64,000 nt of DNA from positions 6,793 through 70,792 of the forward strand of contig JACRKQ010000053.1 in assembly GCA_016219705.1 (NCBI GenBank). The letters run 5' to 3'. This document shows, in pieces, positions 2,656 to 63,812 of this stretch. The notes under the pieces are model-generated. The model was not told the origin of the DNA, did no database searches, and saw only the letters and a program-made list of their open reading frames with translations. Both the position numbers and the translations under genes were made by a program. This DNA is from Candidatus Saganbacteria bacterium (GTDB lineage: Bacteria; Margulisbacteria; WOR-1; O2-12-FULL-45-9). The number at the start of each line of letters is the position of its first letter. Position 1 is the stretch's first letter.

Positions 2656-4110
2656 TCAAATAATACTTGGTTTCCGCTTATGCCAGTCCGTATTCTGTTC
2701 GTAGGTGAAGGCGGCGCGCAATAAAGTCTCTTCTGCAAAAGCTTTTCCAATTAATTGTAAACCGATCGGCAGATTATCGATAAAACCGCAGGGGAGAGAA
2801 ATAGCCGGCAATCCTGCCAGGTTAACCGGGATAGTGGCGATGTCAGAGAGATACATGGCCAGAGGGTCGTTGGACTTTTCCCCGACTTTAAAAGCAGCCG
2901 AAGTGGTGGTAGGGGAGAGAAGAAGGTCGCAATTCTGGAACGCCCGCTCAAAATCATTCTTAATCACGGTGCGGACTTTTAACGCTTTGAGGTAAAAGGC
3001 GTCATAATAACCGGCGGAAAGGGCGTAAGTGCCGATCAATATCCGCCTTTTAACTTCCGGCCCAAAACCTTCCGCCCGCGTATTGTTGTACATTGTCAAA
3101 AGGTCAGGGGAGTTGGGACTGCGTTGTCCGTATTTAACTCCGTCATAGCGGCCCAAATTTGAGCTGGCTTCAGCCGGAGCAATTAAATAATAAGTTGCCA
3201 CGGCGTATGCAAAAGTGGGAAGTGAAACTTCCATTATCTTCGCCCCTAATTCTTCAAACTTCTTCATGGTTTGCTGGATTGACTCCTTAACTTTGGGTTC
3301 AATCCCTTCTCCTAATAGTTCTTTAATAATGCCAATGCGGAGATTTTTGATGTCGTTGACCAATGATTTTTGATAGTCAGGGACGGGCCGGTCAACAGAA
3401 GTGGAATCTTTTTTATCATGGCCGGCCAAAACATTTAACATAATAGCGGTGTCGGTGACATCTTTGGTTAGCGGGCCGATTTGGTCGAGAGAGGAGGCGA
3501 AAGCCACTAATCCATAACGAGAAACCAGCCCATAAGTTGGTTTAAGGCCGACGACACCGCAGAATGCGGCTGGCTGTCTGATCGAGCCGCCGGTGTCCGA
3601 TCCCGTTGCCATCACGGCTTCATTAGCGGCGACGGCGGCAGCGGAGCCTCCAGAAGATCCCCCCGGCACACAATTTAGGTCCCAGGGGTTATAAGTCTTA
3701 TGCAAACCGGAGTTTTCTGTCGAAGAGCCCATAGCGAATTCATCAAGATTTGTTTTTCCCACCACAACGGCTCCCGCGGCTTTTAGTTTTTCGACCACAG
3801 TGGCATCATATGGAGGCTTGTAATTGCTCAAGATTTTTGAAGAGCATGTTGTCAAAATTCCTTTTGTGCACATGTTATCTTTGATGGCGATAGGAATTCC
3901 TGTCAGCGGGGTAACGTTATCGTTATTTTTCAGTCGTTCATCAGCCGCTTTGGCTTGTTTAAGCGCTTCTTCTTTTGTTACTGTTACAAAAGCCTGGATT
4001 TTTGGCTCAACTTTTTCCAGATGAGCAAAGACTGCGGTGGTCAGCTCCTGGGAGCTGCTCTCTTTTTTGGCGAGTAACTTATTAAGTTCATGGGCGGTTT
4101 TTTTGTGCAT
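2656..4110 (-). CDS. gatA: Glu-tRNA(Gln)/Asp-tRNA(Asn) amidotransferase subunit A
   Basis: Amidase signature [13 protein letters not shown], 484 aa, directly downstream of gatC. Confidence 0.9.
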
Positions 4111-4388
4111 TATTCCATTATCTTTGGCACTCTAAACATATTGTTTTCCACTGTTGGTCCGTTAGCGACGATTTCATCCGTATTTGTACAAGGGGCGGCC
4201 ACATCTTCCCGCCAAACATTTTTCATTGGGATTGCGTGGGAGGCGGGAGGAATATTGTTCGTGTCCAGTTTTTGCAGCCTGGCGGCATAATCTAAAATAA
4301 CCGAAAGCTGCCGGCCGTATAACACTTTTTCGTCTTCAGTCAAACCGAGACGAGCGAGTTTGGCGATGTGATTAATATCGAGCTGCAT
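4110..4388 (-). CDS. gatC: amidotransferase subunit C
   Basis: 92 aa, [13 protein letters not shown]...DTNNIPP pattern typical of GatC; abuts gatA. Confidence 0.8.
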
Positions 4389-4403: not shown

Positions 4404-5414
4404 TTATAGACGCAAGCTGGCAACAGGGGAGAGGGATAATGACGAATGACTAATGACTAATGACGAATTAATGAATTTATAATACCCAGCACAGCCAATC
4501 ATGGCTGCGTTATCAGTACAATATTCAAAGGGAGGAATTATTACTTCCAGCCCTTCTTTCTGACCTCTTTTTTGTAATCGACTCCTTAAGCTGGAATTGG
4601 CCGAGACGCCGCCGGCGAGGGTGACAATTTGGACGTTGCGATCTTTGGCCGCGCGAATGGTTTTCTCTACCAGCGTTTCGACGATGGCTTCCTGAAAACT
4701 AGCGACGAGGTCTGGAACTTGTGAAGCGTGAAGAGTGAGGCGTGAAACGTAATTTACAACCGCTGTTTTGATTCCGCTGAAACTGAAATCGTAACCCTGG
4801 TCCATCATAGGGCGGGGAAATTTGATGGCGGCTGGATTTCCTCTCTTGGCCAACTTATCAATAACCGGTCCGCCGGGATAACCCAAACCCAAAAAACGAG
4901 CGACTTTATCAAACGCTTCTCCCGCCGCATCATCCCGAGTCCGGCCCAGCGTTTCATATTCTCCATGACCTTTGACGAGAATAATCATTGTGTGCCCGCC
5001 GGAGACTAATAAACTAATAAAGGGAAAACTTAGAATTTTAGATTTAGAGTTTAAGAAGTTGGCGTATATGTGTCCTTCAAGATGGTTAACTTCAACCAGC
5101 GGGATTTTTCTTCCCCAGGCAATGGCTTTAGCTGCGCAGAGCCCGACGAGGAGGGAGCCGACCAAGCCTGGGCCATAAGTTACGGCAACGGCATTTATGT
5201 CGCCAAACCCAACGTTGGCTCTTTCCAGCGCTTCTTTAATGACCGGATTGATCACTTCAATATGTTTGCGAGCGGCAACTTCGGGAACAATCCCGCCATA
5301 TTTTTTATGAAATTCAATTTGCGAGGAGATGACGTTGGAAAGAACTTCCTGTCCGTCTCTGACAACGGCGGCGGCGGTTTCGTCACAGGATGTTTCGATG
5401 GCTACTATAAACAC
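4404..5414 (-). CDS. tsaD: tRNA N6-adenosine threonylcarbamoyltransferase
   Basis: Kae1/TsaD motifs (IETSCDETAAAV, SLLVSGGHT, DDAAGEAFDKVAR, AGGVSAN); contains heptamer-repeat-derived segments. Confidence 0.85.
   Translation of the reverse strand: MFIVAIETSCDETAAAVVRDGQEVLSNVISSQIEFHKKYGGIVPEVAARKHIEVINPVIKEALERANVGFGDINAVAVTYGPGLVGSLLVGLCAAKAIAWGRKIPLVEVNHLEGHIYANFLNSKSKILSFPFISLLVSGGHTMIILVKGHGEYETLGRTRDDAAGEAFDKVARFLGLGYPGGPVIDKLAKRGNPAAIKFPRPMMDQGYDFSFSGIKTAVVNYVSRLTLHASQVPDLVASFQEAIVETLVEKTIRAAKDRNVQIVTLAGGVSANSSLRSRLQKRGQKEGLEVIIPPFEYCTDNAAMIGCAGYYKFINSSLVISHSSLSLSPVASLRL
4437..4478. repeat. heptamer array (TAATGAC/GAATGAC)x4 plus degenerate units, 42 nt, encoding the C-terminal tail of tsaD
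   Basis: Direct reading of sequence. Confidence 0.85.
4721..4755. repeat. heptamer array GTGAAGC GTGAAGA GTGAGGC GTGAAAC inside tsaD
   Basis: Direct reading. Confidence 0.8.
5021..5048. repeat. irregular TTAGANT ~7-nt tandem repeat inside tsaD
   Basis: Direct reading. Confidence 0.6.
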
Positions 5415-6478
5415 AGCAGAGGAACCTCCTTTTTGGACAATGACAGTGGTCGGGCATCACGCTGGCCCAGGAAGACGTCGGGGAAGATATCAAGGGGCCA
5501 ACCCAGTTCGTTCAAAGAAAGGGAAAAATAATTAGTGGCATTATAGGCAAAATCGCCGTAGGAATGGTAGGCGTAATGTAAACTGACGCCGGCGTAATGG
5601 AAAGTTGCTCCGTAAGTGAAATTATTGGTCAAGGTCGAGCTCTGCGGGTCCTGGTCGACGCCGGCGCGTAAAGTTAAAAATGGATTAGGCGCAAATTCAA
5701 TTCCGGTATGGATGGTTGTCGATTTGGCTGTTTGCAGACTTACATTGGCGTCGGCCGCGATGGAGAGATCAACCGGCGCATAAACAGCCGCTTTTAATTC
5801 TTCGCCCAAGAGAAAAAACCGGGAGCCGATTTTTATTGAGAGAGGTAGATTTTCTCCCTGGGAATTTGCGATGATTTTACTAGAACTGAAGAGATTTTGG
5901 CCGACAACGCCAAAGCTAAACGGACCAACTCCCTGCTGCAGCAAACCGACGTCCAGGTTCCAGCAGCTGCCGGAGCCGGCGCTGACTTCATAGCCATTCT
6001 GGGTATAATATTTCAAGTTAAGCCCCCAGGAGAAGCGTTCATTAAGACGGCGGCCGAACGAGAGGAAGATAACGCTATCGTTGAAAGAGGTTGTTGATTT
6101 TGGTAAAACGCTGGCCGAATCCCTGATTTCAATTCCTCCGATATTGGCGCCGACATAACCCAGCCCGATGGCGCTCTGCTCGCCGAGAGGATAAACGCCG
6201 CCTAGCAGAGAATAAGTGACATCCTCCATGACATTGGCTGACATTGAGAGGAGTTCAAAAGCGTCGATACCGCCCAATCCAGCTGGATTGCTGAAAATAG
6301 TATCAGCGGATTCTCCGACCGCCACGTATGCTCGTCCCATTCCCAGCGCGCGGGCGCCAACGCCGATGGTGAGAGGATCAAAGGTTGTTTGGGCGGCAAC
6401 AACACTGGGAAGAAATGACAAATGACAAATGACAAATGACAAATGAAGGAATCGCTTCGCGATATTATAATAATTCAT
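5405..6478 (-). CDS. secreted outer-membrane beta-barrel protein, PorV/PorQ/FadL-like
   Basis: N-terminal signal peptide followed by GARALGMGRAYVAVGESADTIFSNPAGLG (FadL/PorV-family N-terminal signature), alternating beta-strand pattern, aromatic C-terminus; family assignment from memory only. Confidence 0.4.
   Translation of the reverse strand: MNYYNIAKRFLHLSFVICHLSFLPSVVAAQTTFDPLTIGVGARALGMGRAYVAVGESADTIFSNPAGLGGIDAFELLSMSANVMEDVTYSLLGGVYPLGEQSAIGLGYVGANIGGIEIRDSASVLPKSTTSFNDSVIFLSFGRRLNERFSWGLNLKYYTQNGYEVSAGSGSCWNLDVGLLQQGVGPFSFGVVGQNLFSSSKIIANSQGENLPLSIKIGSRFFLLGEELKAAVYAPVDLSIAADANVSLQTAKSTTIHTGIEFAPNPFLTLRAGVDQDPQSSTLTNNFTYGATFHYAGVSLHYAYHSYGDFAYNATNYFSLSLNELGWPLDIFPDVFLGQRDARPLSLSKKEVPLLCL
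6413..6452. repeat. (AAATGAC)x4 + AAATGAAGGAAT terminus, antisense within signal-peptide codons of PorV-like gene
   Basis: Direct reading. Confidence 0.9.
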
Positions 6479-6838
6479 TTATCGATTGGTAATCCAAATC
6501 TTGCCTTTGCCCAGGCGAGTTTTACCGCTATCAATCAGTTGATATAAATAGACGCTGCTGCCGACAAGTTCATTATTGGCGTCGTAGCCGTTCCAGGTTA
6601 TGCGATTGGTTGCGCCGGCCTGGAGATTAAAAACTTTGCGCTGCAAAAGCCGCGCGGCCATGTCATAAATATATAAGAAGGCTTCAGTTGTGGCGGTTGA
6701 ACTGCATTCAAAGGTGGCTATTTGCCCGGCGGCGGGGTTAAAGGGGTTGGGGTAATTAATAATCGTAACGGCGAAAAATAGAGTGATGAGCCAATTTCTT
6801 CTTTTCATGGAGGTATTGTAGCGGATTTTTTCCAGCAT
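6479..6838 (-). CDS. small secreted protein consisting only of a signal peptide plus T9SS-type C-terminal sorting domain (Por_Secre_tail / FlgD-Ig-like)
   Basis: MKRRNWLITLFFAV signal peptide then NYPNPFNP...LYIYDMAARLL...WNGYDANNELVGSSVYLYQL..GKGKIWI, the hallmark of the TIGR04183 CTD; stop codon abuts start of downstream barrel gene. Confidence 0.5.
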   Translation of the reverse strand: MLEKIRYNTSMKRRNWLITLFFAVTIINYPNPFNPAAGQIATFECSSTATTEAFLYIYDMAARLLQRKVFNLQAGATNRITWNGYDANNELVGSSVYLYQLIDSGKTRLGKGKIWITNR

Positions 6839-6891
6839 GCCAAATTATCATGAAGATGCTATACTTTTAGTGTCATGGCTTTGCCCAAAAA

Positions 6892-7581
6892 ATGATTGAT
6901 ATTGCTGCCAATATTGTTGAAGTTCGCCAGCGAGTGGCTGCTGCGGCAAAAAAATCCGGTCGCAATCCGGCCGATATCAAAATCATTGCGGTAACGAAAA
7001 CTGTTCCGGTTGAGATAATCGAACAGGCAGTTGCCGCGGGAATTACTGATCTCGGAGAGAATCGAGTTCAAGAAGCGACTCCTAAAATTGAAACACTCCG
7101 GCCCAAATATTCTAAAATTAATTGGCACATGATTGGTCATTTGCAGAGAAATAAAGTAAAACAGGTTCTCGCGAAATTTGATTTAATTCAATCGCTTGAT
7201 TCTGAACGCTTAGCACAGGAAATCAATCAACAAGCGACGATTCCCGTTTCCGTCCTGGTAGAGGTCAATGTCGGCGGTGAAGCAAGTAAAACGGGGCTGC
7301 CGGTGGCTGAAGTAATTAGTTTTTTGCAAAATCTGCCGGACTTTGCTAATATTAATGTCACCGGGCTAATGACTGTTGCGCCCTGGTTTTCCGATCCAGA
7401 AAAAACACGGCCTTATTTTGCGCAATTGAAACAGTTAAGCGAAAAAATAAAGACATTAAACCTGCCTCATGTTACAATGCAGTATCTTTCTATGGGGATG
7501 AGCGCTGATTTTGTCCCGGCCATAGAAGAAGGATCGAATATGGTCCGTTTGGGCCGCGCAATTTTTGGTAAGAGGAGTTGA
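6892..7581 (+). CDS. yggS: pyridoxal-phosphate homeostasis protein YggS family
   Basis: Alanine-racemase N-terminal-like fold motifs (AVTKTVPVE, DLGENRVQE, HMIGHLQRNK). Confidence 0.8.
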   Translation: MIDIAANIVEVRQRVAAAAKKSGRNPADIKIIAVTKTVPVEIIEQAVAAGITDLGENRVQEATPKIETLRPKYSKINWHMIGHLQRNKVKQVLAKFDLIQSLDSERLAQEINQQATIPVSVLVEVNVGGEASKTGLPVAEVISFLQNLPDFANINVTGLMTVAPWFSDPEKTRPYFAQLKQLSEKIKTLNLPHVTMQYLSMGMSADFVPAIEEGSNMVRLGRAIFGKRS

Positions 7582-7586
7582 AATAA

Positions 7587-8021
7587 ATGGGTTTATTTGA
7601 AAGAGCGAAACAGTTTATCGGTTTGGAGGAAGATGTCGAAGGAGGAGAAAAGAGCTTTGGCCAGCAGTTGGATATGTCGACGATTTTGCGCGGCAAAAAA
7701 GAACGAAGTGAGGGATCTTATGATGTCATGATTTATGAGCCGAAAGTGTACGAAGATTCGCTGAATATTTCCACTAATTTGCGTTCAGGCGCGCCGGTAA
7801 TCATTAATTTAAAGCACCTTGATCCTTCGGAAGGGACGCGTTTGATCGATTTTGTCTGCGGCACCGCCTACGCCATTGACGGCCATATGTTAAAAATAGG
7901 CGAGTCGATCTTCCTTTTTACTCCTAACAACATCGCTATCACTTCAGCCGAAGAGAAGGCGTCATTATCAGAGAGCGTAACTTTTGACCAGGAAAAACGC
8001 GAAACTTTTTTCTCCCGCTAA
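7587..8021 (+). CDS. sepF: cell division protein SepF
   Basis: DUF552/SepF-like 144 aa, downstream of yggS as in many genomes. Confidence 0.7.
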   Translation: MGLFERAKQFIGLEEDVEGGEKSFGQQLDMSTILRGKKERSEGSYDVMIYEPKVYEDSLNISTNLRSGAPVIINLKHLDPSEGTRLIDFVCGTAYAIDGHMLKIGESIFLFTPNNIAITSAEEKASLSESVTFDQEKRETFFSR

Positions 8022-8032
8022 ATGAGGTCATT

Positions 8033-8821
8033 GTGACAAGTATCGGTTTTATCGGCGGCGGCCGGATGGCCGAAGCCATAATTAAAGGTTTAACTGCCGC
8101 TAAATCAGATTGGGAAATCCATGTTTCTGACAGCGATCCGGCGCGGCGGGAACACTTGCGCAACCGATATTCGGCAACTGCCCATGTTAATAACGCGCAG
8201 TTAGCCCAACTGGTTGATGTCATCGTCTTAGCCATTAAGCCGCAGGTCTTTTTGTCGGTGGTAAAAGATTTAACCGTTAAGCCGGATAAATTAGTTGTTT
8301 CCATCGCGGCTGGCGTCACTCTCGATTTTTTGGAAAACGCTTTTCCTCAAGTTCCGGTTGTCCGGGTGATGCCGAATAATCCAGCGCTGGTCAAGGCAGG
8401 GATGACGGCGATCTCAACCGGCCCAAATGTTTCTAGAGATAAATTACTTCTAGTTGAGAAAATTTTCAGCGCAGTCGGAGAGATTGTTCACGTCGAAGAA
8501 AAACATATGGATGCGGTAACCGGGCTTTCCGGTTCCGGGCCGGCATATGTTTATTTAATGATCGAAGCTTTAACCGCGGCGGGCCGGGAATTAGGATTAG
8601 CTGCGGCTGTTTCCGAAAAACTGGCGCTCCAGACTGTTTGGGGCGCGGCGCAGACAATGTTAAAAACAGGCCAGTCCGCGGCCCAACTGCGCGAGATGGT
8701 GACATCACCAGGTGGGACAACTTTAGCTGGGCTGAAAGTTCTCGAAGAAAAACAATTTTTCCTCGTGTTGGTTGAGGCGGTAAAAGCGGCGGCGGTCCGC
8801 GCACAGCAGCTTAGTCAGTAA
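8033..8821 (+). CDS. proC: pyrroline-5-carboxylate reductase
   Basis: IGFIGGGRMAEA Rossmann motif, GSGPAYVYLMIEAL and SPGGTT motifs. Confidence 0.85.
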   Translation: MTSIGFIGGGRMAEAIIKGLTAAKSDWEIHVSDSDPARREHLRNRYSATAHVNNAQLAQLVDVIVLAIKPQVFLSVVKDLTVKPDKLVVSIAAGVTLDFLENAFPQVPVVRVMPNNPALVKAGMTAISTGPNVSRDKLLLVEKIFSAVGEIVHVEEKHMDAVTGLSGSGPAYVYLMIEALTAAGRELGLAAAVSEKLALQTVWGAAQTMLKTGQSAAQLREMVTSPGGTTLAGLKVLEEKQFFLVLVEAVKAAAVRAQQLSQ

Positions 8822-8842: not shown

Positions 8843-9754
8843 ATGTCAAAGGTCCTTATTGTCGGTACGATTGGTCTGGATACGATTGAAACGCCTTTTG
8901 GTAAAAAGCCGGAGATAATCGGTGGTTCTGCCGTCCATGCCGCCGTGGCGGCCAGTTTTTTTGCCCAGCCGGCGATTGTCGGCGTGGCGGGGACGGATTT
9001 TCCTGAAGAGCATTTAACCTTCCTGCGGTCGCGCGGTATTGATACCAGCGGCATTAATATCCTGGCGGGTGAGACTTTTCGCTGGTCGGGTTTTTATGAA
9101 TACGACATGAACCAGGCCCATACGCGTGACACCCGTTTAAACCTTTACGCGACTTTTGATCCGCAGATCCCGGAAACACTGCGGGCAACGGCATATGTTT
9201 TCCTGGCGAACCTTGATCCCGATCTCCAATTAAAAGTCTTGGACCAGCTTAAAGGGCCAAAGCTGGTGGCCATGGACACAATGGATTTCTGGATAAAAAA
9301 TAAGCGCGAAGTCCTGCACAAAGTAATTAAAAAAGTTGATGTCGTTTTGATGAATGACGGCGAAGCGAGACAATTTATGGAGACGCCCAACCTGCCGCTG
9401 GCGGCCAACCGGCTGTTGGAGCTGGGTACCAAGCTGGTCATCATTAAAAAAGGCGAGCATGGCGCTCTGCTTTTCAGCCGGGACAATCATTTTGCCGCGC
9501 CGTCATATCCCCAGGATCAATTACGCGATCCGACCGGGGCGGGGGATTCTTTCGCGGGGGGCTTTATCGGCTATTTGGCCAAAAGTTATGACCTCTCCGA
9601 GCAGAATATCCGTCGCGCGGTCATTGTCGGATCAGTGATGGCTTCATTTAACGTCGAAGATTTCAGTCTCAATCGTTTAAAACAGCTAAAACACAAGGAG
9701 ATTGTCGAACGTTTTGCGGCCTTCCGCCGTTTTACAGAGTTTGCAGCAATTTAA
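8843..9754 (+). CDS. PfkB-family carbohydrate kinase
   Basis: Ribokinase-like fold with anion-hole motif DPTGAGDSFAGGF. Confidence 0.7.
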   Translation: MSKVLIVGTIGLDTIETPFGKKPEIIGGSAVHAAVAASFFAQPAIVGVAGTDFPEEHLTFLRSRGIDTSGINILAGETFRWSGFYEYDMNQAHTRDTRLNLYATFDPQIPETLRATAYVFLANLDPDLQLKVLDQLKGPKLVAMDTMDFWIKNKREVLHKVIKKVDVVLMNDGEARQFMETPNLPLAANRLLELGTKLVIIKKGEHGALLFSRDNHFAAPSYPQDQLRDPTGAGDSFAGGFIGYLAKSYDLSEQNIRRAVIVGSVMASFNVEDFSLNRLKQLKHKEIVERFAAFRRFTEFAAI

Positions 9755-9784: not shown

Positions 9785-10465
9785 ATGGATGATTATCAGA
9801 GGATCGGCCGGTTACTATTCCAGGAGAGATTAATTGATTCGCACGGCGGTAATTTAAGCTGGCGGGAAGGAGACAAAATTTTCATCACCGGTCTTAATGT
9901 GATGTTGGGGGATCTGAAACCTGAAGATATTATTGAGGTTGGCCTGGAACCGGGAGCCGATGATCAAAAGGCTTCACGGGAATTACCGACCCATCGCGCG
10001 CTTTATAAAAATTCCGCAATTAAAGCTATTGTTCATGCCCATCCGGCCAACGCGATCGCCATTTCCCTGACTGATAATAAAATTATTCCCCAGGATTCAG
10101 AAGGGCTATTCTTATATAAGTCAGCGCCGATTGTCCGGGTTAGAGATGGGGTGGGGTCGGAAGAAACTGTCCGCTTACTCCCCAGCTTTCTCGGCAAAGA
10201 AAATGTTATTGCCGTGGTGAAAGGCCATGGGAGTTTTGCCGTCGGACAAAATTTAGAAGAAGCTTATAAATATACTTCCTGTCTGGAAAATTCCTGCCGG
10301 GTGATTATCGCGGTCAGGGCTTCAGGGGGGCGGGGCAGCGGACAGACGGCAGTCAGCAATGTCAGTAAGCCCATGGAGCGGCCGCAGCGGGGGAGACCAG
10401 CTTTCAAGTCGGCTATTCCGCCCGGCATCGGCGTGATGGATCGCAGCCGTTATCGCAATCGATGA
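9785..10465 (+). CDS. class II aldolase/adducin-domain protein
   Basis: HAHPANAIAIS motif of class II (fuculose-phosphate-like) aldolases; low-complexity C-terminal tail overlapping rel start. Confidence 0.6.
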   Translation: MDDYQRIGRLLFQERLIDSHGGNLSWREGDKIFITGLNVMLGDLKPEDIIEVGLEPGADDQKASRELPTHRALYKNSAIKAIVHAHPANAIAISLTDNKIIPQDSEGLFLYKSAPIVRVRDGVGSEETVRLLPSFLGKENVIAVVKGHGSFAVGQNLEEAYKYTSCLENSCRVIIAVRASGGRGSGQTAVSNVSKPMERPQRGRPAFKSAIPPGIGVMDRSRYRNR

Positions 10466-15867: not shown

Positions 15868-16950
15868 ATGAAGAGAAGCAAGGTCTCGGTGCTAAAAACT
15901 AAACCGGAAACGGCGCTGGCTGATTACGGCCAGTTAATGCGCTTGGCTGATTATCAAAATTATTTGCCCAAAGACAAAGATACCGCGTTAAAGATTAATA
16001 TCTCCTGGCACCATTTTTATCCAGCCTGTTCCACCACCCCCTGGCAGCTTGAAGGCGTAATCAAAACACTTTTGGCTGACGGCTATAAGCGGGAATTAAT
16101 TCACGGTTGTCATAATCGGACGGTGGTTGTCTCGGCGACAAAAGGGGAGCTGGCGAATAAACATAAGCCTGTAATTGATAAATATGGATTGAGAAATGTC
16201 CATCTTTACAAAGACGAACAGTGGATAAAATATGAACCGCAGGGAAAAATGTTGGTCCTGGACCAGATATTCCCCGACGGGATTTATATCCCCAAACGGT
16301 TTATCGGTGAAAATATTATCCATTTGCCGACGATAAAGACTCATATTTTTACAACAATAACCGGCGCCATGAAAAATGCTTTTGGCGGGCTCTTGCATGA
16401 AAAACGCCATTGGACCCATTCAGTAATCCATGAAACATTAGTGGATCTATTAACGATCCAGAAAGAGATCCACTCCGGCCTTTTTGCGGTCATGGACGGG
16501 ACTTTTGCCGGAGATGGCCCCGGGCCGCGCTGCATGGTCCCTTACGTTAAAGATTACATCCTGGCTTCCAATGATCAGGTGGCTATCGACGCGATCGCGG
16601 CGCAGATGATGGGGTTTGACCCGATGTCGCTTAAATTTATCCGCCTGGCGCATGAGGCCGGTTTAGGGGTAGGCGACCCGCAGGAAATTGAAGTTGTCGG
16701 GGAAGATATTTCCAAAGTTAATTTCCATTTCCAGATGGAGCGGACGACTTTTGCCAGCCGCGGTCAGGAATTGATCTATTGGGGACCGTTAAAACCGCTG
16801 GAAAATTTTCTGCTCCGCACTGTCCTGGCTCCCTGGTCGTATCTGGCCTCAATTTTGTATCACGATTATTACTGGTATCCCTGTGTCGGCAAAGAACGTG
16901 TTAATGAGATGCTTAAGACCGGCTGGGGCCAGCTCTTCCAGAGTTATTAA
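15868..16950 (+). CDS. DUF362-domain protein
   Basis: IKTHIFTTITGAMKNAFGG matches the DUF362 KTH signature from memory; the ORF track starts at 15838 overlapping vapC, in-frame ATG at 15868 preferred. Confidence 0.55.
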   Translation: MKRSKVSVLKTKPETALADYGQLMRLADYQNYLPKDKDTALKINISWHHFYPACSTTPWQLEGVIKTLLADGYKRELIHGCHNRTVVVSATKGELANKHKPVIDKYGLRNVHLYKDEQWIKYEPQGKMLVLDQIFPDGIYIPKRFIGENIIHLPTIKTHIFTTITGAMKNAFGGLLHEKRHWTHSVIHETLVDLLTIQKEIHSGLFAVMDGTFAGDGPGPRCMVPYVKDYILASNDQVAIDAIAAQMMGFDPMSLKFIRLAHEAGLGVGDPQEIEVVGEDISKVNFHFQMERTTFASRGQELIYWGPLKPLENFLLRTVLAPWSYLASILYHDYYWYPCVGKERVNEMLKTGWGQLFQSY

Positions 16951-18650
16951 TGCGCAAAAAGTGGTTGATTCATCCGGAGAGTCAGTTAGTGCGACAATTA
17001 GCGGACGAATTAAATATCTCTGCTATTACGGCCCAAATTCTGATCAATCGCGGCATTAATAATCCGGCCCAAGCCCAGGTTTTTCTTCAACCTAAATTAA
17101 TCAATTTGTCCGATCCTTTTGAAATTCCCAATATAAAACAGGCGGCCGAACGGGTTTTATTGGCTAAAGAACGCGGGGAAAAGGTTTTGATTTTTGGAGA
17201 TTATGATGTTGATGGGGTGACCGGCACGGCCATTCTGCTGCAGACGCTCAAATTCCTGGGGCTGGCCCCTTTACATTATATACCGCACCGCTACGATGAA
17301 GGCTACAGCCTGTCGCTTGAAGCAGTGGAAAAAATCGCGGCTGACGGGGTAAAGCTTATTATCACCGTAGATTGCGGGACCTCTAATTTTACAGAGATTA
17401 CCCGAGCGCGTGAATTAGGGATGGAAGTGGTGGTAACTGATCATCATAATTTATCTCGACAAGTCCTGCCGGCGGCGGCGATTGTTAATCCCAAATTCAT
17501 GGCGCAAGACCATCCGGCGCGGAATCTGGCAGGGGCGGGGGTCGCGTTTAAGTTTGCTTGGGCTCTTTTGCGGACGGCGGGGATAAAAGAGAGCGCCTTT
17601 CTGGCTTCTCTTCTTGATCTGGCGGCTTTGGGGACGATTGCCGATATTGTCCCTCTGGCGGAAGAAAATCGGATTATCGCTGTCCGCGGGTTAGCCCAGC
17701 TCAACCAGCGCCAGCGTGTCGGTTTAAGACATTTATCTGATGTGGCCGGCCTGCCCGAGAGGGTGACGGTCGAACATGTCAGTTTTTCCCTGGCGCCGCG
17801 GATCAATGCGGCGGGCCGTTTGGAGCACGCCAATAAAGCGCTGGAGCTAATGTTGACGGCTGATGAATCTCAAGCCCAAGAGCTGGCTGGCGAATTAAAT
17901 TCAATAAATATAAAACGTCAGGATATAGGCAGCGGCATCAAGTCAGCGGTCTTCGGGCAATTAACCGATCATATTATGGAGGACGAGCCGTTAATTGTTT
18001 TAAGCGGGGATAATTGGCATCCTGGAGTAATTGGCATTGTTGCTTCGCAAGTGGTCGATCGCTTTTCCCGTCCGACGATTTTGATTGGTGTTTATGATGA
18101 AGTGGGACGGGGTTCGGCGCGGTCATTAGCTGGGATTAATATTTATAATCTACTTAATTCCTGCAGCGATCTCTTTGAAACTTTTGGCGGACACGCCGGG
18201 GCGGCGGGTTTTGAAATTAAAACTGATAAACTGACTGAATTGACCAGCCGCTTAAAAGAGGCGGCGCAGATATCTTTAGCGCCTGAAGCTTTGATCCCTA
18301 AACTGATGATCGATATGGAATTACCGACCCAAACCTTAACATTAACGCTGGCAAAAAAGTTGGAAATATTTGCTCCTCATGGAGAAGGGAATCCTCAACC
18401 GCTCTTTTTAAGCCGCCAACTTCGCTTAATCGATCAACGGACTGTCGGCCGGGACAATCGGCATTTGAAATTAAAATTATCTGATGGAATTGCTCATCTT
18501 GATACCATTGGCTTTGATTGTGGCCACTTGGCCGGCCAATTAGTGGCTAATGCCTGTTATGATGTTGTCTATCGACTGGAGTCCAATGAATGGAATGGAT
18601 TTGAGAATGTCCAGCTTAACCTGGCGGATATTAGGGAGGCTAAATCATGA
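16950..18650 (+). CDS. recJ: single-stranded-DNA-specific exonuclease RecJ
   Basis: DHH (GDYDVDGVTG, VTDHH) and DHHA1 motifs, 566 aa. Confidence 0.85.
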   Translation: MRKKWLIHPESQLVRQLADELNISAITAQILINRGINNPAQAQVFLQPKLINLSDPFEIPNIKQAAERVLLAKERGEKVLIFGDYDVDGVTGTAILLQTLKFLGLAPLHYIPHRYDEGYSLSLEAVEKIAADGVKLIITVDCGTSNFTEITRARELGMEVVVTDHHNLSRQVLPAAAIVNPKFMAQDHPARNLAGAGVAFKFAWALLRTAGIKESAFLASLLDLAALGTIADIVPLAEENRIIAVRGLAQLNQRQRVGLRHLSDVAGLPERVTVEHVSFSLAPRINAAGRLEHANKALELMLTADESQAQELAGELNSINIKRQDIGSGIKSAVFGQLTDHIMEDEPLIVLSGDNWHPGVIGIVASQVVDRFSRPTILIGVYDEVGRGSARSLAGINIYNLLNSCSDLFETFGGHAGAAGFEIKTDKLTELTSRLKEAAQISLAPEALIPKLMIDMELPTQTLTLTLAKKLEIFAPHGEGNPQPLFLSRQLRLIDQRTVGRDNRHLKLKLSDGIAHLDTIGFDCGHLAGQLVANACYDVVYRLESNEWNGFENVQLNLADIREAKS

Positions 18651-19948
18651 AGATAATGGTTGTCGGTTCCGGCGGCCGCGAGCACGCGCTGATTTGGAAA
18701 ATCAAGCAGAGTTCAGTCGTTGCAAAAATTTATTGTGTGCCGGGGAATGCCGGAACAGCGGAACTGGCGGAAAATGTGGAGATTAAAGCGGATGATATTA
18801 ACGGTCTGCTGAAATTTGCCAAAGAACAAAAAATCAATCTGACTGTTGTTGGTCCCGAAGTGCCGTTGGCGGCCGGCATAGTTGATTTGTTCAACAAAAA
18901 TGATTTAAGGATTTTTGGCCCGTCTGCGGCGGCAGCGCGGATTGAGGGGAGCAAAGTTTTTGCTAAACAATTTATGGCTAAATATGGCATTCCCACCGCC
19001 CAATCCGGGATCTTCGCTGATAAAAAAAAGGCAAAAGCTTACATTAACATGATGGGGGCGCCGATCGTGGTCAAGGCCGATGGTTTAGCGGCGGGGAAGG
19101 GGGTCGTCGTCTGCCAAACAGTTGAGGCGGCAAATCAGGCGGTTGAACTTATTATGGAGAAAAAAGAATTCGGCCAGGCCGGGGCGCAGGTTGTCATTGA
19201 GGAGTGTTTGATCGGGGAAGAATCTTCGATTATTGCTTTAACTGATGGCGAAACAATTGTTCCTCTGGCTTCATCTCAAGACCACAAACGGATTTTTGAT
19301 AATGATGAGGGACCAAATACCGGAGGGATGGGAGCGTATTCACCGGCGCCGGTTGTGACCGATGGTTTAATGGAACAGATTAATAATGAGGTCCTTCTCC
19401 CCTTCGTCCAAGGAATGAAACAGGAGGGGATTGTTTACAAGGGAGTTATTTATGCTGGAATTATGGTTACAAAAGCGGGGCCGAAGGTTTTAGAGTTTAA
19501 TGCCCGTTTTGGCGATCCGGAAACCCAACCGATCATGATGCGGCTCAAGAGCGATCTTGTCCCGATTCTTGAAGCAGTGATAGACGGTAAATTAGCCGGC
19601 CAAAAAATTATTTGGGACGAACGAGCGGCGGTCTGTGTCGTTTTAGCGGCGGGAGGCTATCCGGGGAAATATGAGACTGGTTTGCCGATCACCGGATTAG
19701 ATAAAGTTCATCAGGTTGCTAAGGCTTATGTTTTTCATGCGGGAACGAAAATAGAGGATAGAACAGAGAAGACAGAACACAGACTACAGATATCAACTAA
19801 TGGCGGCCGCGTTCTTGGCGTGACAGCGTTAGGCGATTCGCTCAAATTTGCTATCGACAAAGCTTACCAGGCTGTCTCATTAATCAATTTTAAAGGCATG
19901 CATTACCGGAAAGATATCGGTGGGAAGGCCCTGAAGCTGGTTCGCTAA
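18647..19948 (+). CDS. purD: phosphoribosylamine--glycine ligase
   Basis: Full-length PurD (ATP-grasp; MKIMVVGSGGREHAL, TNGGRVLGVTALG); carries a 42-nt heptamer-array insertion. Confidence 0.9.
   Translation: MKIMVVGSGGREHALIWKIKQSSVVAKIYCVPGNAGTAELAENVEIKADDINGLLKFAKEQKINLTVVGPEVPLAAGIVDLFNKNDLRIFGPSAAAARIEGSKVFAKQFMAKYGIPTAQSGIFADKKKAKAYINMMGAPIVVKADGLAAGKGVVVCQTVEAANQAVELIMEKKEFGQAGAQVVIEECLIGEESSIIALTDGETIVPLASSQDHKRIFDNDEGPNTGGMGAYSPAPVVTDGLMEQINNEVLLPFVQGMKQEGIVYKGVIYAGIMVTKAGPKVLEFNARFGDPETQPIMMRLKSDLVPILEAVIDGKLAGQKIIWDERAAVCVVLAAGGYPGKYETGLPITGLDKVHQVAKAYVFHAGTKIEDRTEKTEHRLQISTNGGRVLGVTALGDSLKFAIDKAYQAVSLINFKGMHYRKDIGGKALKLVR
19753..19794. repeat. (AGANNNC)x6 heptamer array, 42 nt in-frame in purD
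   Basis: Direct reading. Confidence 0.85.
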
Positions 19949-54427: not shown

Positions 54428-56008
54428 ATGAAAGTCCTAGCTTCTGACAAAATTGATGAAAGTGGTTTGAAGATGCTCCGTGACGCTGGTATTGAGGCCG
54501 ACATGAAGATTGGATTGCCGGAAGAAGAATTGGTCAAAATTATTCCGCAATATGACGCCTTAATCGTCCGCTCTGATACCAAAGTTACGCCAAAAATCAT
54601 TGAAGCCGGAAAAAAATTACAAATTATCGGACGGGCCGGCGTTGGCGTTGACAACGTCGATTTACCGACGGCGACCAAAAACGGCGTGATCGTCGTCAAT
54701 TCTCCAGAGGGAAACACCGTTGCCGCCGCGGAACATTCCTTTGCGATGCTGCTGGCGATGGCCAGACAAATTCCACAGGCCCACGGAAAATTGAAAACCG
54801 GCGTCTGGGACAAAAAGAGCTTCAAAGGAGTCGAAGTCTTGAACAAAGTTCTGGGTGTGGTCGGTTTAGGGAAAATTGGCCGCCGCGTGGCTTCGTATGC
54901 TCTGGGTATGGGGATGAAGGTTCTTGCTTACGATCCCTTTGTGACCGAAGAATATGCCAAGTCACTTGGAGTCGAATTAAAACCGCTTGATCAAGTTCTT
55001 AACCAGGCTAATTTTGTAACTTTTCACATTCCCAAGACCAAAGAGACTGCCAATTTGATTAACAAAGCAACTTTGGCCAAGATGAAAAAAGGTGTTCGCT
55101 TGATCAACGTTGCCCGCGGAGGAATTATCAATGAGGCTGATCTGTGTGAAGCGTTAAAAAGCGGCCAAGTTGCGGCGGCGGCGCTTGATGTTTTTGAAAA
55201 AGAGCCTTTGTCTGCGGACAGTCCATTATTAAATTTGGATAATATAGTTGTTACTCCGCACCTTGGCGCTTCGACCGTTGAAGCTCAAGTCAATGTGGCC
55301 ATTGATGTGGTCGAGCAGATTATTGATGTTCTGCAGGGTGGGGTGGCCCGTTCGGCGGTAAACATTCCTTCGATGAAACCGGAATTGATCGCTCCGGTCC
55401 GGCCCTTTATGGGGATTACGGAAAAATTGGGAACTTTAGCGGCCCAGTTAGTCCCGGGGGCGGTTTCTAAAGTCAGTGTTGAATACAGCGGCGAAATTGC
55501 GGAGAAAGAGATCTCGCCGCTGACGACAACGCTGCTTAAGGGTTTGCTAACCCCAATGATGGATGTCGTCGTTAATTTTGTCAACGCGCCATTGATCGCC
55601 AAAGAACGCGGGATAGAAATTACGGAGACTAAAAATTGCGAGGCCCGTGATTTCGCAAATTTAATCAAAGTAAAAGTGGTCTCCGCCCAGGGGAGCCGCG
55701 AAGTCGGCGGTACAGTTTTTGTTGGGGTGGGAGATCGCCTGGTTTTGATCGACGGCTACCGTGTTGACGCCGATCCCAGCGGTTATTTATTAATAATTTC
55801 CAATATTGATAAGCCGGGGATGATTGGTAAAGTTGGGACTTGTTTGGGGCAGCATGGTATAAACATTGCTTCCATGGATGTCGGGCGGCTTACAGTCAAT
55901 GAAAAAGCAGTTATGGTTCTCAATGTAGATAATACTGTCTCTGATACTGTCATAAAAGATTTAACGGCGATTGATGGGATTGCCGGGGCGACGCTGGTAA
56001 AACTTTAA
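54428..56008 (+). CDS. serA: D-3-phosphoglycerate dehydrogenase
   Basis: 2-hydroxyacid DH fold (GLGKIGRRVA), C-terminal ACT domain, 526 aa. Confidence 0.85.
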   Translation: MKVLASDKIDESGLKMLRDAGIEADMKIGLPEEELVKIIPQYDALIVRSDTKVTPKIIEAGKKLQIIGRAGVGVDNVDLPTATKNGVIVVNSPEGNTVAAAEHSFAMLLAMARQIPQAHGKLKTGVWDKKSFKGVEVLNKVLGVVGLGKIGRRVASYALGMGMKVLAYDPFVTEEYAKSLGVELKPLDQVLNQANFVTFHIPKTKETANLINKATLAKMKKGVRLINVARGGIINEADLCEALKSGQVAAAALDVFEKEPLSADSPLLNLDNIVVTPHLGASTVEAQVNVAIDVVEQIIDVLQGGVARSAVNIPSMKPELIAPVRPFMGITEKLGTLAAQLVPGAVSKVSVEYSGEIAEKEISPLTTTLLKGLLTPMMDVVVNFVNAPLIAKERGIEITETKNCEARDFANLIKVKVVSAQGSREVGGTVFVGVGDRLVLIDGYRVDADPSGYLLIISNIDKPGMIGKVGTCLGQHGINIASMDVGRLTVNEKAVMVLNVDNTVSDTVIKDLTAIDGIAGATLVKL

Positions 56009-56009
56009 A

Positions 56010-56783
56010 ATGTTCTGGTTGGGCCGCAAGAAAATAGGCTTGGCTTTGGGCGGCGGGGTAGCGCGGGGCATTGCTCATGTTGGCGTGTTGCGAGTTATTG
56101 AGGAATCCCGCCTTCCGGTTGAATATGTCGCGGCCACGTCGGCCGGGGCGATAATTGGCGCGGTTTATGCCGCCGGGTTAAGCCTGGCAAGAATTGAAGA
56201 ACTCGCCTTAAAGATCCGCTGGTCGAAAATTTTGAAACTAGCTTTTTTTCGCCCAGGATTAATAACCTCCCAGGTAATTGAAGATCTAATAATTGAATAC
56301 ATAGGGGATAAAGATTTTAAAGAATTGAAAATCCCTCTGGCCGTTGTGGCCACAGATCTTAAAACCGGCGGGCCAGTAATTATTAGAAGCGGCAGTGTGG
56401 CTAGAGCAGTGTCGGCTAGCGCCTCATTTCCTGGTTTATTTTCTCCGGTTATCTATAATAGCCAGCATTTGATTGACGGCGGCCTGGCCTATAATTTACC
56501 AGTTAGCGTCGTTAGGGAGCTGGGAGCAAATTTTGTTATAGCTTCAGATGTTATCCCGGCAATTCCGCCACACCATTTACCCCAAACGCCTCTGCATGTT
56601 TTTGGACGGGCCCTGGATATCCTCCTTAATAAATTGTCTTTTCAAGAGCGCAAGCTGGCGGATATTCTGATCGAGCCGCATTATTCCGAAGATATCTATC
56701 CTTTTGATATGCATAAAGCCAGAAAATTGATCGCCGCGGGAGAAATTGCGGCGCATAAAGCATTAAAATATGTTAAAATATAA
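56010..56783 (+). CDS. patatin-like phospholipase
   Basis: GGGVARGIAHVGVL oxyanion motif, ATSAG (GxSxG variant) and DGG dyad. Confidence 0.75.
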   Translation: MFWLGRKKIGLALGGGVARGIAHVGVLRVIEESRLPVEYVAATSAGAIIGAVYAAGLSLARIEELALKIRWSKILKLAFFRPGLITSQVIEDLIIEYIGDKDFKELKIPLAVVATDLKTGGPVIIRSGSVARAVSASASFPGLFSPVIYNSQHLIDGGLAYNLPVSVVRELGANFVIASDVIPAIPPHHLPQTPLHVFGRALDILLNKLSFQERKLADILIEPHYSEDIYPFDMHKARKLIAAGEIAAHKALKYVKI

Positions 56784-56820
56784 ATATCTTAATGAATTCA
56801 ATTAAGAAAGGGGAGAATTA

Positions 56821-59055
56821 ATGTCAGAATCTAGTGTTGTGCTACCGGTTTTGGGCGCGTTAGAATTAAATTTGCTTTGGTTGGTCTTTGGTTCGGCTAT
56901 TGTTGCTTTATTATACGGTGGGTTCCTGGCCTGGAAAGTTCTAAGGGAACCGCAAGGCTCTAACGCGATGATTGAAGTCTCAAAAGCCATCCAGGAGGGA
57001 TCAGCGGCTTATCTTTCCCGCCAATTCAAAGTTATGGCGGTTTTTATTTTACTTTTAACGGCGGGCCTTTATTTTATGTATCGGCCGATATATTCTAATA
57101 ATCCGGTTTTACCTATCGGGATTGCGATTGCTTTCCTATTGGGTTCGATTGCTTCCGCCGGGGCTGGTTTTGTCGGTATGAGTTTAGCTGTTCGAGCTAA
57201 CACTCGGGTGGCTAACGCCGCGTTAACCAGTTTCAAAAAATCACTGGAAATTGCTTTTCAGGCCGGGACTATTTCCGGCATGTTTACCGTGGGGTTTGGT
57301 CTCCTGGGCGCTGTCATAATCTTCATGATCTTCCGCCAGGATGCGATGAAGGTTTTAGTCGGCTTTGGTTTCGGCGGCTGTTTGGTCGCTCTCTTCATGA
57401 GGATCGGCGGCGGTATTTTTACCAAAGCGGCTGATGTCGGCGCCGATTTAGTCGGAAAAGTCGAGAAAAATATCCCTGAAGATGATCCGCGCAATGCAGC
57501 CGTTATCGCTGATAATGTTGGTGATAACGTCGGTGACTGTGCTGGCATGGCGGCGGATGTCTTTGAAAGCTACGAAGTAACCCTGGTGGCGGCGATAATT
57601 TTGGGGGCGGGTGTTCTTCTGGAACCAAGCTTTAAGGCTGCTTACGGGGTCTTAGCCTCGGCTATGGCCTTAAAGTTAATTATTTATCCGCTGTTGGTTC
57701 GTGCTGTTGGTGTCTTTGCTTCAATCATTGGCACGATGGTCGTCCGCGGTAAGGACGGTGAGCAGGTTGGCGACGCAATGAAGCCGATTAAATTTGGTTT
57801 TTGGGTTGCCGCCTTGACATCAATAGCTGGTTTTGGCTTGGTTAATTATTTGTATTTAAAAGATTGGCGTTTTTTCTTTGCGACTTTAACCGGTATCATT
57901 TTGGCAATTGTGATTGAATGGATCACCGATTATTATACTCACACCGAACATCGGCCGGTAAAAGAGACCTCTTTTTCCACGAAGACTGGCCCAGCGACGA
58001 CAATTTTAACGGGTTTCGGCTTAGCTCAAGAATCTTCGGTTTGGGCGATACTGGCCATTGGCGTAACCATTTTTGTCTCCATGAGCATCTTTGCCGGAGA
58101 CCTGGCGTTAGCGGCTTATGGCGTTGCTTTGGCTGGCCTGGGGCTATTAACAACGACTGGTTTTATTCTGGCCGAAGATACCTTCGGTCCGATATCTGAT
58201 AATGCTAACGGTATTTTCGAAATGTCGGGAGCGAACAAAGGGGCAGGGGCGAAGGCGCAGGAAATCATCACCAAGCTGGATGCGGTGGGAAATACGACTA
58301 AGGCGCTAACCAAAGGATTTGCGATTGCCACCGCAGTTATCGCGGCCATTGCTTTATTTAAATCATTTATTGCTGAAGGCGGACTGGCAAATATTGGTAT
58401 TCAGTTGAATATGCCCGAAGTCTTTATCGGCTTATTAATTGGCGGTGCGGTGCCGTTTCTTTTCTCTTCTTTCTTAATCGGCGCCGTCAGTCGTTCGGCA
58501 ACTAAAGTGGTGGAAGAAGTTCGGCGCCAATTCAGGGAAATTCCTGGCTTGATGGAAGGGAAGAATAAGCCGGAGTATTTTAAGTGTGTTGATATTGTTA
58601 CGGCTAGTGCGCAAAAAGAATTGGTGGGTCCGGCCATTTTAGCCGTTTGCACTCCGATCGCGGTTGGGTTTGGTTTAGGCGCGGCGGCATTAGGCGGATA
58701 CCTGGCTGGTGCGATTCTGGTTGGACAATTGCTGGCGGTTCTTTTGGCTAATTCGGGCGCTATTTGGGACAATGCCAAAAAAGTGATTGAAATGGGGGCT
58801 TATGGCGGCAAGGGGAGCGATTCTCACAAAGCGGCGGTTATTGGTGACACGGTCGGGGATCCATTTAAAGATACGGCTGGCCCGGCGCTGAACCCATTGA
58901 TCAAGGTGATGAACCTGGTGGCGATTCTAATTGTTCCGATGATTATCATTAATCTAGCTCCCGAGGTTAGATATACAGTTGTTGGAATTGCCGTCGGCTT
59001 AATTGGTCTAGCCTTTTGGCTGTCCAAGAGAGAAAAAATGATGGAGGAGAAATAG
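56821..59055 (+). CDS. hppA: membrane-bound H+-translocating pyrophosphatase
   Basis: GDNVGDNVGDCAGMAADVFESYEV signature, 744 aa polytopic. Confidence 0.9.
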   Translation: MSESSVVLPVLGALELNLLWLVFGSAIVALLYGGFLAWKVLREPQGSNAMIEVSKAIQEGSAAYLSRQFKVMAVFILLLTAGLYFMYRPIYSNNPVLPIGIAIAFLLGSIASAGAGFVGMSLAVRANTRVANAALTSFKKSLEIAFQAGTISGMFTVGFGLLGAVIIFMIFRQDAMKVLVGFGFGGCLVALFMRIGGGIFTKAADVGADLVGKVEKNIPEDDPRNAAVIADNVGDNVGDCAGMAADVFESYEVTLVAAIILGAGVLLEPSFKAAYGVLASAMALKLIIYPLLVRAVGVFASIIGTMVVRGKDGEQVGDAMKPIKFGFWVAALTSIAGFGLVNYLYLKDWRFFFATLTGIILAIVIEWITDYYTHTEHRPVKETSFSTKTGPATTILTGFGLAQESSVWAILAIGVTIFVSMSIFAGDLALAAYGVALAGLGLLTTTGFILAEDTFGPISDNANGIFEMSGANKGAGAKAQEIITKLDAVGNTTKALTKGFAIATAVIAAIALFKSFIAEGGLANIGIQLNMPEVFIGLLIGGAVPFLFSSFLIGAVSRSATKVVEEVRRQFREIPGLMEGKNKPEYFKCVDIVTASAQKELVGPAILAVCTPIAVGFGLGAAALGGYLAGAILVGQLLAVLLANSGAIWDNAKKVIEMGAYGGKGSDSHKAAVIGDTVGDPFKDTAGPALNPLIKVMNLVAILIVPMIIINLAPEVRYTVVGIAVGLIGLAFWLSKREKMMEEK

Positions 59056-59058
59056 ACT

Positions 59059-61923: not shown

Positions 61924-61955
61924 CTACATTGTAGTACAATATGGGAGATTGAAAA

Positions 61956-62221: not shown

Positions 62222-62225
<4 letters not shown>
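61956..62225 (+). CDS. BrnT-like toxin (DUF497)
   Basis: FDWDEKNITHIARHNVTPEEVEE...RVITARDMS pattern; TTG start with GGGAG RBS. Confidence 0.6.

Positions 62226-63812
<1,587 letters not shown>

Follow-up and report, generated by a model that had tools for sequence, protein, structure and literature searches.

A conserved Saganbacteria gene pair encoding a passenger-less type-A-CTD-like protein and a PorV/PorQ-family outer-membrane barrel

We analysed a 64,000-nt stretch of the Candidatus Saganbacteria contig JACRKQ010000053.1 (positions 6,793 to 70,792; hereafter the window), in which a small gene is followed directly, on the minus strand, by the gene of a 357-aa outer-membrane beta-barrel. 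The product of the small gene resembles the C-terminal domain (CTD) that sorts type IX secretion system (T9SS) substrates, and the barrel belongs to the PorV/PorQ family. Our results revealed that the two genes form a core, syntenic pair among housekeeping genes in Margulisbacteria/Saganbacteria, and that it is the smallest case of a rule seen across phyla, by which a CTD-ending gene lies directly upstream of a barrel gene of this family. We give a probability of about 0.5 to the reading in which the pair codes for two proteins that work as a dedicated unit at the outer membrane, a minimal form of a PorU-PorV-like anchoring module and not a general shuttle.

By its predicted structure, the small protein is a type-A-CTD-like beta-sandwich, closest to the CTD retained by PorU. 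The AlphaFold2 (AF2) model was confident (predicted local distance difference test, pLDDT, 92.5) and contained six strands of at least 3 residues as well as short bridges. Its top Foldseek match was the PorU CTD of P. gingivalis (6za2; TM score 0.66-0.68, root-mean-square deviation (rmsd) 2.6-3.0 Å over 100 columns), with FlgD as second best (3osv, rmsd 2.8 Å over 77 columns) and the PorZ CTD region (5m11) and the RemZ CTD (8gl8_D) among the further matches. When the PDB sequences were searched with a profile of the small-protein family, PorU residues 1057-1139 came first (E 2.6e-4). The motifs that the first-pass annotation had read as a T9SS sorting domain (NYPNPFNP, YDMAARLL, GSSVYLYQL and GKGKIWI) are all present in the sequence. 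Its assignment stood at the level of fold, profile and family: TIGR04183 (T9SS type A sorting domain) was matched at E <= 1e-3 by 65 of the 73 family members (best 4.5e-9), and the C-terminal end of the PorU model by 72 of 73. The window protein taken singly came just below the cutoff, with 20.9-21.2 bits against 23. A generic FlgD Ig-like domain, which the same annotation had offered as the alternative, fitted less well, since PF13860 (FlgD_ig) gave 13.3 bits against a gathering cutoff of 27 and the PorU CTD was a better structural match than FlgD. PF18962 (Por_Secre_tail) did not match the window protein in the Pfam scan. Several homologues carry the NCBI name 'T9SS type A sorting domain-containing protein', and family-level labels for both proteins are already found in database annotation.

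The small-protein family is well conserved, with a mean column identity of 64% and ten residues invariant in the 73 sequences (N18, P20, N21, P22, W72, G74, Y87, Y89, G102 and K103). The CTD-type domain extends to the last residue of the protein, and G102-K103 belong to the last strand. In P. gingivalis, CTDs bind the extracellular loops of PorV and one conserved lysine contacts the PorV backbone (PMC10994853); by analogy, K103 may be the equivalent of this lysine. As PorU is the best match, descent of the small gene from a decayed porU was considered. It is not favoured: the cargo-bearing CTDs of Margulisbacteria also score best on the PorU C-terminus, so that such a match is no specific sign of an origin from PorU. 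A search of the whole database with the small-protein profile returned 22,326 relatives, some of which hold up to 15 internal tandem FlgD_ig-like copies. The giant proteins P0192-P0199 (1,400-2,300 aa), for example, have 9-15 such copies with very high scores against the profile; their repeats are without the YPNPF start motif and without the terminal K-x-W-V-I-N strand.

The small protein had been described as a 119-aa signal peptide plus CTD with no passenger. The lack of a passenger was borne out, whereas the length was probably overestimated: the true coding sequence probably spans 6479-6808 and starts at M11 (ATG at 6808), giving 109 aa, because 84 of 109 homologues are 109-110 aa long and begin with MK/MR..WLL at the equivalent position. 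The database held 110 homologues of the small protein and about 66 close homologues of the barrel, including for each a record in NCBI of 100% identity, both on an 86,928-bp Candidatus Saganbacteria contig. In the aligned N-termini the n-region is positively charged, the hydrophobic core spans 12 residues and A/T-x-T/S/A is kept at -3/-1, and signal peptidase would likely cleave at A-x-T/S before (V/I)INYPNPF(NP). Such a cleavage leaves about 94 mature residues, that is, the domain alone with approximately 0-2 residues beyond it in alignment and AF2 model, and thus the word 'cargo-less' is accurate for this protein. Both genes are real; a pseudogene or a chance open reading frame (ORF) is ruled out by more than 100 intact homologues and by conservation at housekeeping level. 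The M11 ATG is preceded by ACCTCC, without a Shine-Dalgarno sequence. A consensus match to a promoter just upstream (Table 1) suggests that the mRNA of the small gene may be leaderless or near-leaderless.

By its profile scores, the barrel belongs over its full length to the PorV/PorQ family. The NCBIfam subfamily model for PorV/PorQ, NF033709, gave 124 bits against a cutoff of 90 and aligned residues 30-323 with profile positions 1-325 of 326. The earlier label 'PorV-like' is correct to this extent, and PorV chains were also the best fold matches; it does not extend to PorV, PorQ or PorV2 proper, as all three equivalog scores lay far below their cutoffs (PorV NF033710, 44.3 against 250; PorQ NF033711, 39.6 against 220; PorV2 NF052325, 50.2 against 325). 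The first-pass annotation had named membership in an unrelated porin family as the outcome that would speak against it. The profile search returned the PorV/PorQ family, and the best Pfam match, PF03349 (Toluene_X, FadL/TodX), covered residues 44-156 only and remained below its cutoff (25.4 against 29.7 bits). A BamG model did not match the window barrel at E <= 1 in the NCBIfam scan. In the fold search with a half-confident model of the barrel, PorV chains from SprA translocon structures (6h3i_F and 8gl6_F, E 5e-5) ranked ahead of FapF and FadL. This model was taken from an AF2 pseudo-fusion in which the N-terminal half of the barrel had a pLDDT of about 25, so that any strand count rests on a poor model. 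Both N-terminal motifs noted earlier, GARALGMGRAYVAV and SNPAGL, are present, and the block GARALGMG...NPAGLG..ID is invariant in 23 barrel orthologues.

Two features of the barrel N-terminus may be mentioned here. The predicted mature protein starts with glutamine (cleavage between A and QTTFDP; window 6388-6393), which is kept in most orthologues. It recalls the N-terminal glutamine 'Q-rule' of Bacteroidetes signal-peptidase substrates (PMC5837995). Furthermore, the signal-peptide codons contain a perfect heptanucleotide repeat (Table 1). If a single unit were added or dropped, the reading frame would change, and the repeat could therefore act as a slipped-strand on/off switch of the barrel. 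By eye, the starts of the barrel genes in loci L081 and L003 look heptamer-repetitive as well.

The raw sequence confirmed that the TAA of the small gene directly abuts the ATG of the barrel gene. Among called genes of orthologous loci, the two overlap by 4 nt or 19 nt in L001, L081, L163, L165 and L166 (ATGA-type in L081), and an insert of about 95 nt separates them in L162 and L004. In L162 the insert is one of two copies of an element of about 95 nt with inverted repeats, resembling repetitive extragenic palindromes or miniature inverted-repeat transposable elements (...CACCCCTCTCCATTGAAAATGGAGAGGGG..., at 9560-9650 and 10022-10115); one copy is placed upstream of the small gene, the other between it and the barrel, and the gene caller has called the barrel start through it. 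A similar-looking sequence follows the small-gene stop in L004 (from about 7852).

In every readable orthologous locus (the window, L001, L003, L004, L081, L162, L163, L165 and L166-168), the small gene is followed directly by the barrel gene. In the cluster tables, at least 24 small-protein clusters pair with a barrel cluster whose longest contig has equal size. The divergent upstream neighbourhood is also kept: sepF, proC, pfkB, aldolase and relA genes were found at this place in L001, L003, L004, L081, L162, L163, L165 and L166, and yggS was present at the loci of the pair other than L001 and L165, in which it was not detected. The conservation of the small protein is about that of ProC and above that of the barrel (mean pairwise distances 0.45, 0.44 and 0.54, respectively). 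The first-pass annotation had regarded a CTD-only partner beside a PorV-like barrel as unusual, but the pair is fixed across the phylum. We found no paper on the passenger-less pair, on its fixation in Margulisbacteria/Saganbacteria, or on the rule of a CTD gene upstream of a barrel gene in phyla without a described T9SS.

This rule was derived from a scan of genome collections with the barrel alignment, which gave 80 loci, and from our own hidden Markov models of the small protein and the barrel, which were run over all six-frame ORFs. The loci came from Margulisiibacteriota, Elusimicrobiota, Zixibacteria, Ignavibacteria, Calditrichota, KSB1, Coatesbacteria, Firestonebacteria, Poribacteria, Spirochaetia and others, and for many of these phyla we know of no described T9SS. 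Among the 84 PorV-family barrels with enough upstream sequence, 44 were preceded directly, in the same orientation, by an ORF with this CTD-type domain at its end. As a control, we used the CTD-ending ORFs of a metagenome scan seeded with the small-protein alignment, in which the NYPNPFNP pattern had drawn mostly generic CTD proteins and one orthologue; only 2 of 90 had a barrel downstream, one of them being that orthologue of the pair. The difference between 44/84 and 2/90 indicates that the adjacency is a property of these barrels and not of CTD proteins generally. Measured from stop to stop, the upstream ORFs range from 110 aa to more than 2,600 aa, and their passengers are of Ig-repeat and adhesin-like types (TIG, Big_1, Invasin_D3, Big_5, He_PIG). 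Paired barrels from other phyla scored 127-174 bits on NF033709. At the Coatesbacteria locus L035 the protein encoded before the PorV-family barrel is a genuine PorU sortase (443 bits, cutoff 420).

Passenger-less CTD genes also occur elsewhere. In the Elusimicrobiota locus L025, a 144-aa protein is encoded before a barrel (TIGR04183 24.3 against 23 bits). In L161, a 119-aa protein (26.1 against 23 bits) is overlapped by a downstream ORF that has a barrel-like start and runs for only 50 aa to the contig end. Within 7495-15485 of L025 lie three barrel genes, and every one of them has a CTD protein as partner: the passenger-less protein of 144 aa, a protein of 515 aa whose gene is downstream of its barrel, and a proline-rich protein of 607 aa encoded on the other strand. 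Margulisbacteria have cargo-bearing CTD proteins too (L005, L006, L008, L014), and their genes lie mostly directly upstream of a paralogous barrel of their own.

In the reading that we favour, both proteins would be exported by Sec, and their abutting or overlapping genes would deliver them together, possibly at a ratio of about 1:1. The CTD would then dock stably on its cognate barrel, following the models of PorV, which holds the PorU CTD and, by its extracellular loops, the CTDs of substrates, and of PorQ, which holds PorZ; the barrel would be the private socket or anchor of the CTD. From these models we infer the physical binding and the membrane face at which it would take place. On this view, a widespread module joins a CTD-ending surface protein, whatever its size, to a PorV-family barrel of its own that is encoded directly downstream, and the pair would be the extreme form of this module, without a passenger. 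The core syntenic position of the pair among housekeeping genes points to the CTD-barrel complex itself as a constitutive envelope component and not a display device. The first-pass annotation had considered a minimal sorting-signal and shuttle module, a regulator or a decoy; the fixation throughout the phylum and the one-to-one adjacency across phyla argue for a dedicated partner and against a general shuttle or a decoy.

The nearest known arrangement is that of the P. gingivalis attachment complex, whose PorU and PorZ retain their CTDs and are anchored at the cell surface through PorV and PorQ (PMC5562754), and in which porU (PGN_0022) lies directly upstream of porV (PGN_0023). The likeness consists in a CTD-retaining protein on a PorV/PorQ-family barrel and in the gene order, and the PorU CTD is the nearest solved relative of the small protein. 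Unlike PorU-PorV, the window pair has neither sortase nor passenger, its barrel stays below the PorV and PorQ equivalog cutoffs, and its host phylum lies outside the Fibrobacterota-Chlorobiota-Bacteroidota (FCB) group. Another comparable case is that of type-B CTD proteins and PorP/SprF barrels, which are often encoded side by side. According to PMC9143113, type-B CTD proteins and cognate PorP/SprF-like barrels are one-to-one anchoring pairs, and they resemble the window pair in joining a CTD protein to a dedicated outer-membrane barrel. However, the CTD is of type B there and type-A-like here, the barrel is PorP/SprF there and PorV/PorQ here, and the type-B pairs act within a complete T9SS.

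Several results weigh against the anchoring reading. In a mirror-tree analysis of 9 genomes, the partial correlation between small protein and barrel was 0.35 (permutation p = 0.03), and the housekeeping controls were equally high (0.36-0.62), so the test indicates no co-evolution beyond shared phylogeny. A narrow Margulisbacteria barrel profile did not detect PorV among the PDB sequences and gave only spurious DNA-ligase matches. The small protein falls 2 bits short of the TIGR04183 cutoff and has no significant Pfam match, and its domain class also forms internal tandem Ig repeats in other proteins; the fold alone is therefore no proof of a sorting or anchoring role. The AF2 pseudo-fusion of small protein and barrel, built with unpaired homologues, was confident in the CTD part and gave no interface read-out, and its barrel N-half had collapsed because MAFFT misaligned the mixed families. 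Moreover, a folded CTD would have no evident route to the outer face if an SprA-type translocon is absent, and it is hard to see what an anchor without a passenger would do; any physiological role that we propose for the pair is therefore a guess.

An alternative is that the barrel is an exporter dedicated to its neighbour, similar to two-partner secretion or Slam/type XI systems, and carries the CTD protein through the outer membrane or inserts it there, in which case the 94-residue Ig domain would itself be the product exported to the surface. The strict one-to-one, same-strand adjacency across phyla, with passengers of more than 2,600 aa and in many phyla for which no T9SS is described to our knowledge, would agree with this, as would the periplasmic TPR extensions of many barrels. 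One of these, that of L071, weakly resembles the TPR domain of Slam, although the TPR_Slam match stays below cutoff (30 against 35 bits). However, barrels of the FadL/PorV type have about 14 strands and are plugged by their own N-terminus, and we know of none that passes folded or long polypeptides, which is hard to reconcile with export; we hold this explanation to be unlikely. A canonical T9SS, with the barrel as PorV shuttle and the small protein as a PorA-like regulator, a decoy or a minimal substrate that passes through the SprA translocon, appears quite unlikely to us. Both proteins belong to T9SS-associated families, cargo-bearing CTD proteins do exist in Margulisbacteria, and a precedent for the small protein is available in P. 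gingivalis: PorA (PGN_0123) is a small protein with a CTD that forms a stable complex with PorV and still arrives at the surface in translocon mutants, and its CTD alone signals to and activates PorY (PMC7712824, PMC12152298). PorA shares with the small protein its small size, its CTD and the lack of an enzymatic passenger; it differs in that its N-terminal domain, of Ig-like or FimH-like type, is still present (246 aa). These two papers do not place porA next to porV, and no PorXY-SigP context was seen at the window pair. Besides the equivalog scores of the barrel, the cargo-bearing CTD genes speak against the canonical system, as they mostly have a paralogous barrel each rather than one shuttle for many cargos. 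Scans of the 64-kb window, which took in all six-frame ORFs with 50 aa or more for the CTD and barrel profiles and ten large ORFs for NCBIfam, brought up no T9SS component, and no T9SS Pfam families were seen in the flanks of loci with gene calls, L162, L163, L165 and L166 among them. Reviews place the T9SS in Bacteroidota or the FCB group, and our literature search found no paper linking it to Margulisbacteria, Saganbacteria or Termititenax.

The two genes might also be unrelated neighbours that share an operon, the barrel being a FadL-type channel for hydrophobic compounds and the small protein a generic periplasmic FlgD-like Ig domain. The Toluene_X/FadL family is indeed the best Pfam match of the barrel (25.4 bits) and FadL structures are among its fold matches, while FlgD hook-cap domains are the second-best structural match of the small protein and the same domain class occurs as tandem repeats in unrelated giant proteins. 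The FlgD Ig-like domain (PF13860) belongs to the same beta-sandwich superfamily as the small protein. Unlike FlgD, however, the latter is predicted to be exported by Sec, stands alone, is coupled to an outer-membrane barrel, has no flagellar context and ends with a CTD-type last strand and an invariant lysine. The FadL match is below cutoff and limited to the N-terminus, PorV outranks FadL in the fold search, and chance neighbours would hardly account for an adjacency of 44/84 against a background of 2/90 that recurs in many phyla and paralogues with usually overlapping genes. We therefore consider mere neighbourhood very unlikely. Highly improbable, in our opinion, is an accessory unit of the barrel-assembly machinery, in which a barrel of the FadL family would use its loops to bind a small partner at the surface and would cooperate with BamA. 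It would take BamG of Bacteroidota as its model, an essential 14-strand FadL homologue whose extracellular loops bind the surface protein BamH; the paralogous BamG2 and BamH2 share an operon (PMC12578637). BamG was the only relevant entry that we found in the literature on 'PorV-like' families outside Bacteroidota. The window pair is likewise a core, single-copy unit of housekeeping character with a FadL-type barrel. BamH, however, is a lipoprotein and not a CTD domain, the BamG model does not match the window barrel significantly and gives related barrels 15-19 bits against a cutoff of 250, and no linkage to bamA was seen in the loci. Set against these alternatives, the dedicated anchoring unit remains the reading that we prefer.

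The features of the window, together with the barrels of other loci that carry SLH domains, are collected in Table 1. The operon had been described as continuing into tsaD and gatCA. These genes are on the same strand in the window, tsaD overlaps the barrel stop, and they are probably co-transcribed with the pair in this genome. However, this continuation is specific to this genome and lies outside the conserved module: tsaD-gatCA is absent downstream of the pair in L001, L003, L004 and L081, and rpsB and/or tsf stand there in L162, L163, L165 and L166, rpsB-tsf being the usual downstream neighbours in the phylum. The other parts of the window that were scanned (36-2640, 16950-19948 and 54428-63812) contain the housekeeping genes nuoM, nuoN, recJ, purD, serA, membrane pyrophosphatase, ileS and ahcY.

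Table 1. Coordinates of the small gene, the barrel gene and associated features (window positions unless a locus is named)
Feature	Position	Strand	Basis or remark
Small ORF as listed, 119 aa	6479..6838	-	ORF list and raw sequence
Predicted signal peptide of small protein (MKRRNWLITLFFAVT)	6764..6808	-	Homologue alignment; cleavage after A-V-T probable
Predicted mature small protein, one type-A-CTD / FlgD_ig-class beta-sandwich, ~94 aa	6482..6763	-	AF2 model and profile matches
Promoter-like site TTGGCA-17-TACAAT	6815..6843	-	Consensus match (10/12 positions); ends 6 nt before M11 ATG
Junction: small-gene TAA (6481-6479), then directly barrel ATG (6478-6476), same frame	6476..6481	-	Raw sequence
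Outer-membrane beta-barrel of the PorV/PorQ family, 357 aa; residues 1-29 predicted as signal peptide	5405..6478	-	NF033709 and fold matches
Perfect tandem repeat (AAATGAC) x 4.9 in barrel signal-peptide codons (LSFVICH repeated)	6413..6446		Possible slipped-strand switch
tsaD (GTG at 5414; overlaps barrel stop by 10 nt)	4404-5414	-	ORF list
gatC	4110-4388	-	ORF list
gatA	2656-4110	-	ORF list
Divergent yggS-sepF-proC cluster, then pfkB-like, aldolase and relA genes	6892..8821	+	Conserved upstream neighbour of the pair
SLH-bearing barrels of other loci	L005 922-3468; L006 7914-9773; L007 64-2064; L008 7731-9812; L010 7755-9797		Also P0067, P0069-P0071

Some relatives of the barrel have gained further domains. 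Paralogous PorV-family barrels of Margulisbacteria/Saganbacteria carry a C-terminal Ig-like (Glucodextran_B) domain and 2-5 SLH matches. In paralogous modules of Margulisbacteria, the gene of a TIG-repeat-CTD protein precedes such a barrel, which there has 3-5 SLH domains after its Ig-like domain. Their domain order is the reverse of that in SLH porins of the OmpM/Slp type, and the architecture suggests tethers between outer membrane and cell wall that are built on the FadL/PorV fold. Long C-terminal TPR extensions with weak UPF0164 matches were seen on barrels of L011, L015, L019, L031 and L071 and on P0074, which come from Ignavibacteriales, an FCB-group metagenome-assembled genome, Firestonebacteria and Muiribacteriota. 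In P0075 (bacterium F11, 409 aa), a PorV-family barrel at the N-terminus is naturally fused to a FlgD_ig-like domain at the C-terminus, an order opposite to the gene order of the CTD-barrel pairs.

More broadly, we tentatively propose, as a possibility to which we give clearly less weight than to the anchoring unit itself, that pairs of a CTD protein and a PorV-family barrel are an autonomous two-gene module for surface anchoring, and possibly for its own export, that works without SprA and PorKLMN in many diderm phyla (Margulisbacteria, Elusimicrobia, Firestonebacteria, Poribacteria and others). From such modules the T9SS may have drawn its attachment parts PorU-PorV and PorZ-PorQ, and the Saganbacteria pair would be the irreducible core of the module, a socket and a plug with an envelope function of their own.

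Provided that the barrel has the small protein as its private ligand, the pair would be the simplest natural system for the recognition of a type-A CTD by a PorV-type barrel. The ligand would count about 94 residues, neither passenger nor sortase would be involved, and a translocon possibly would not be needed either. It bears on the question whether PorV-family barrels can hold or expose CTD proteins without SprA, to which the behaviour of PorA in P. gingivalis hints at a positive answer, and on the origin of the T9SS attachment complex. The rule of a CTD gene upstream of a barrel gene may serve as an annotation aid for thousands of metagenomic giant surface proteins that are now called 'hypothetical'. 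Margulisbacteria/Saganbacteria are relatives of Cyanobacteria, and the pair also bears on how the outer membrane is built and decorated in these little-known diderm phyla.

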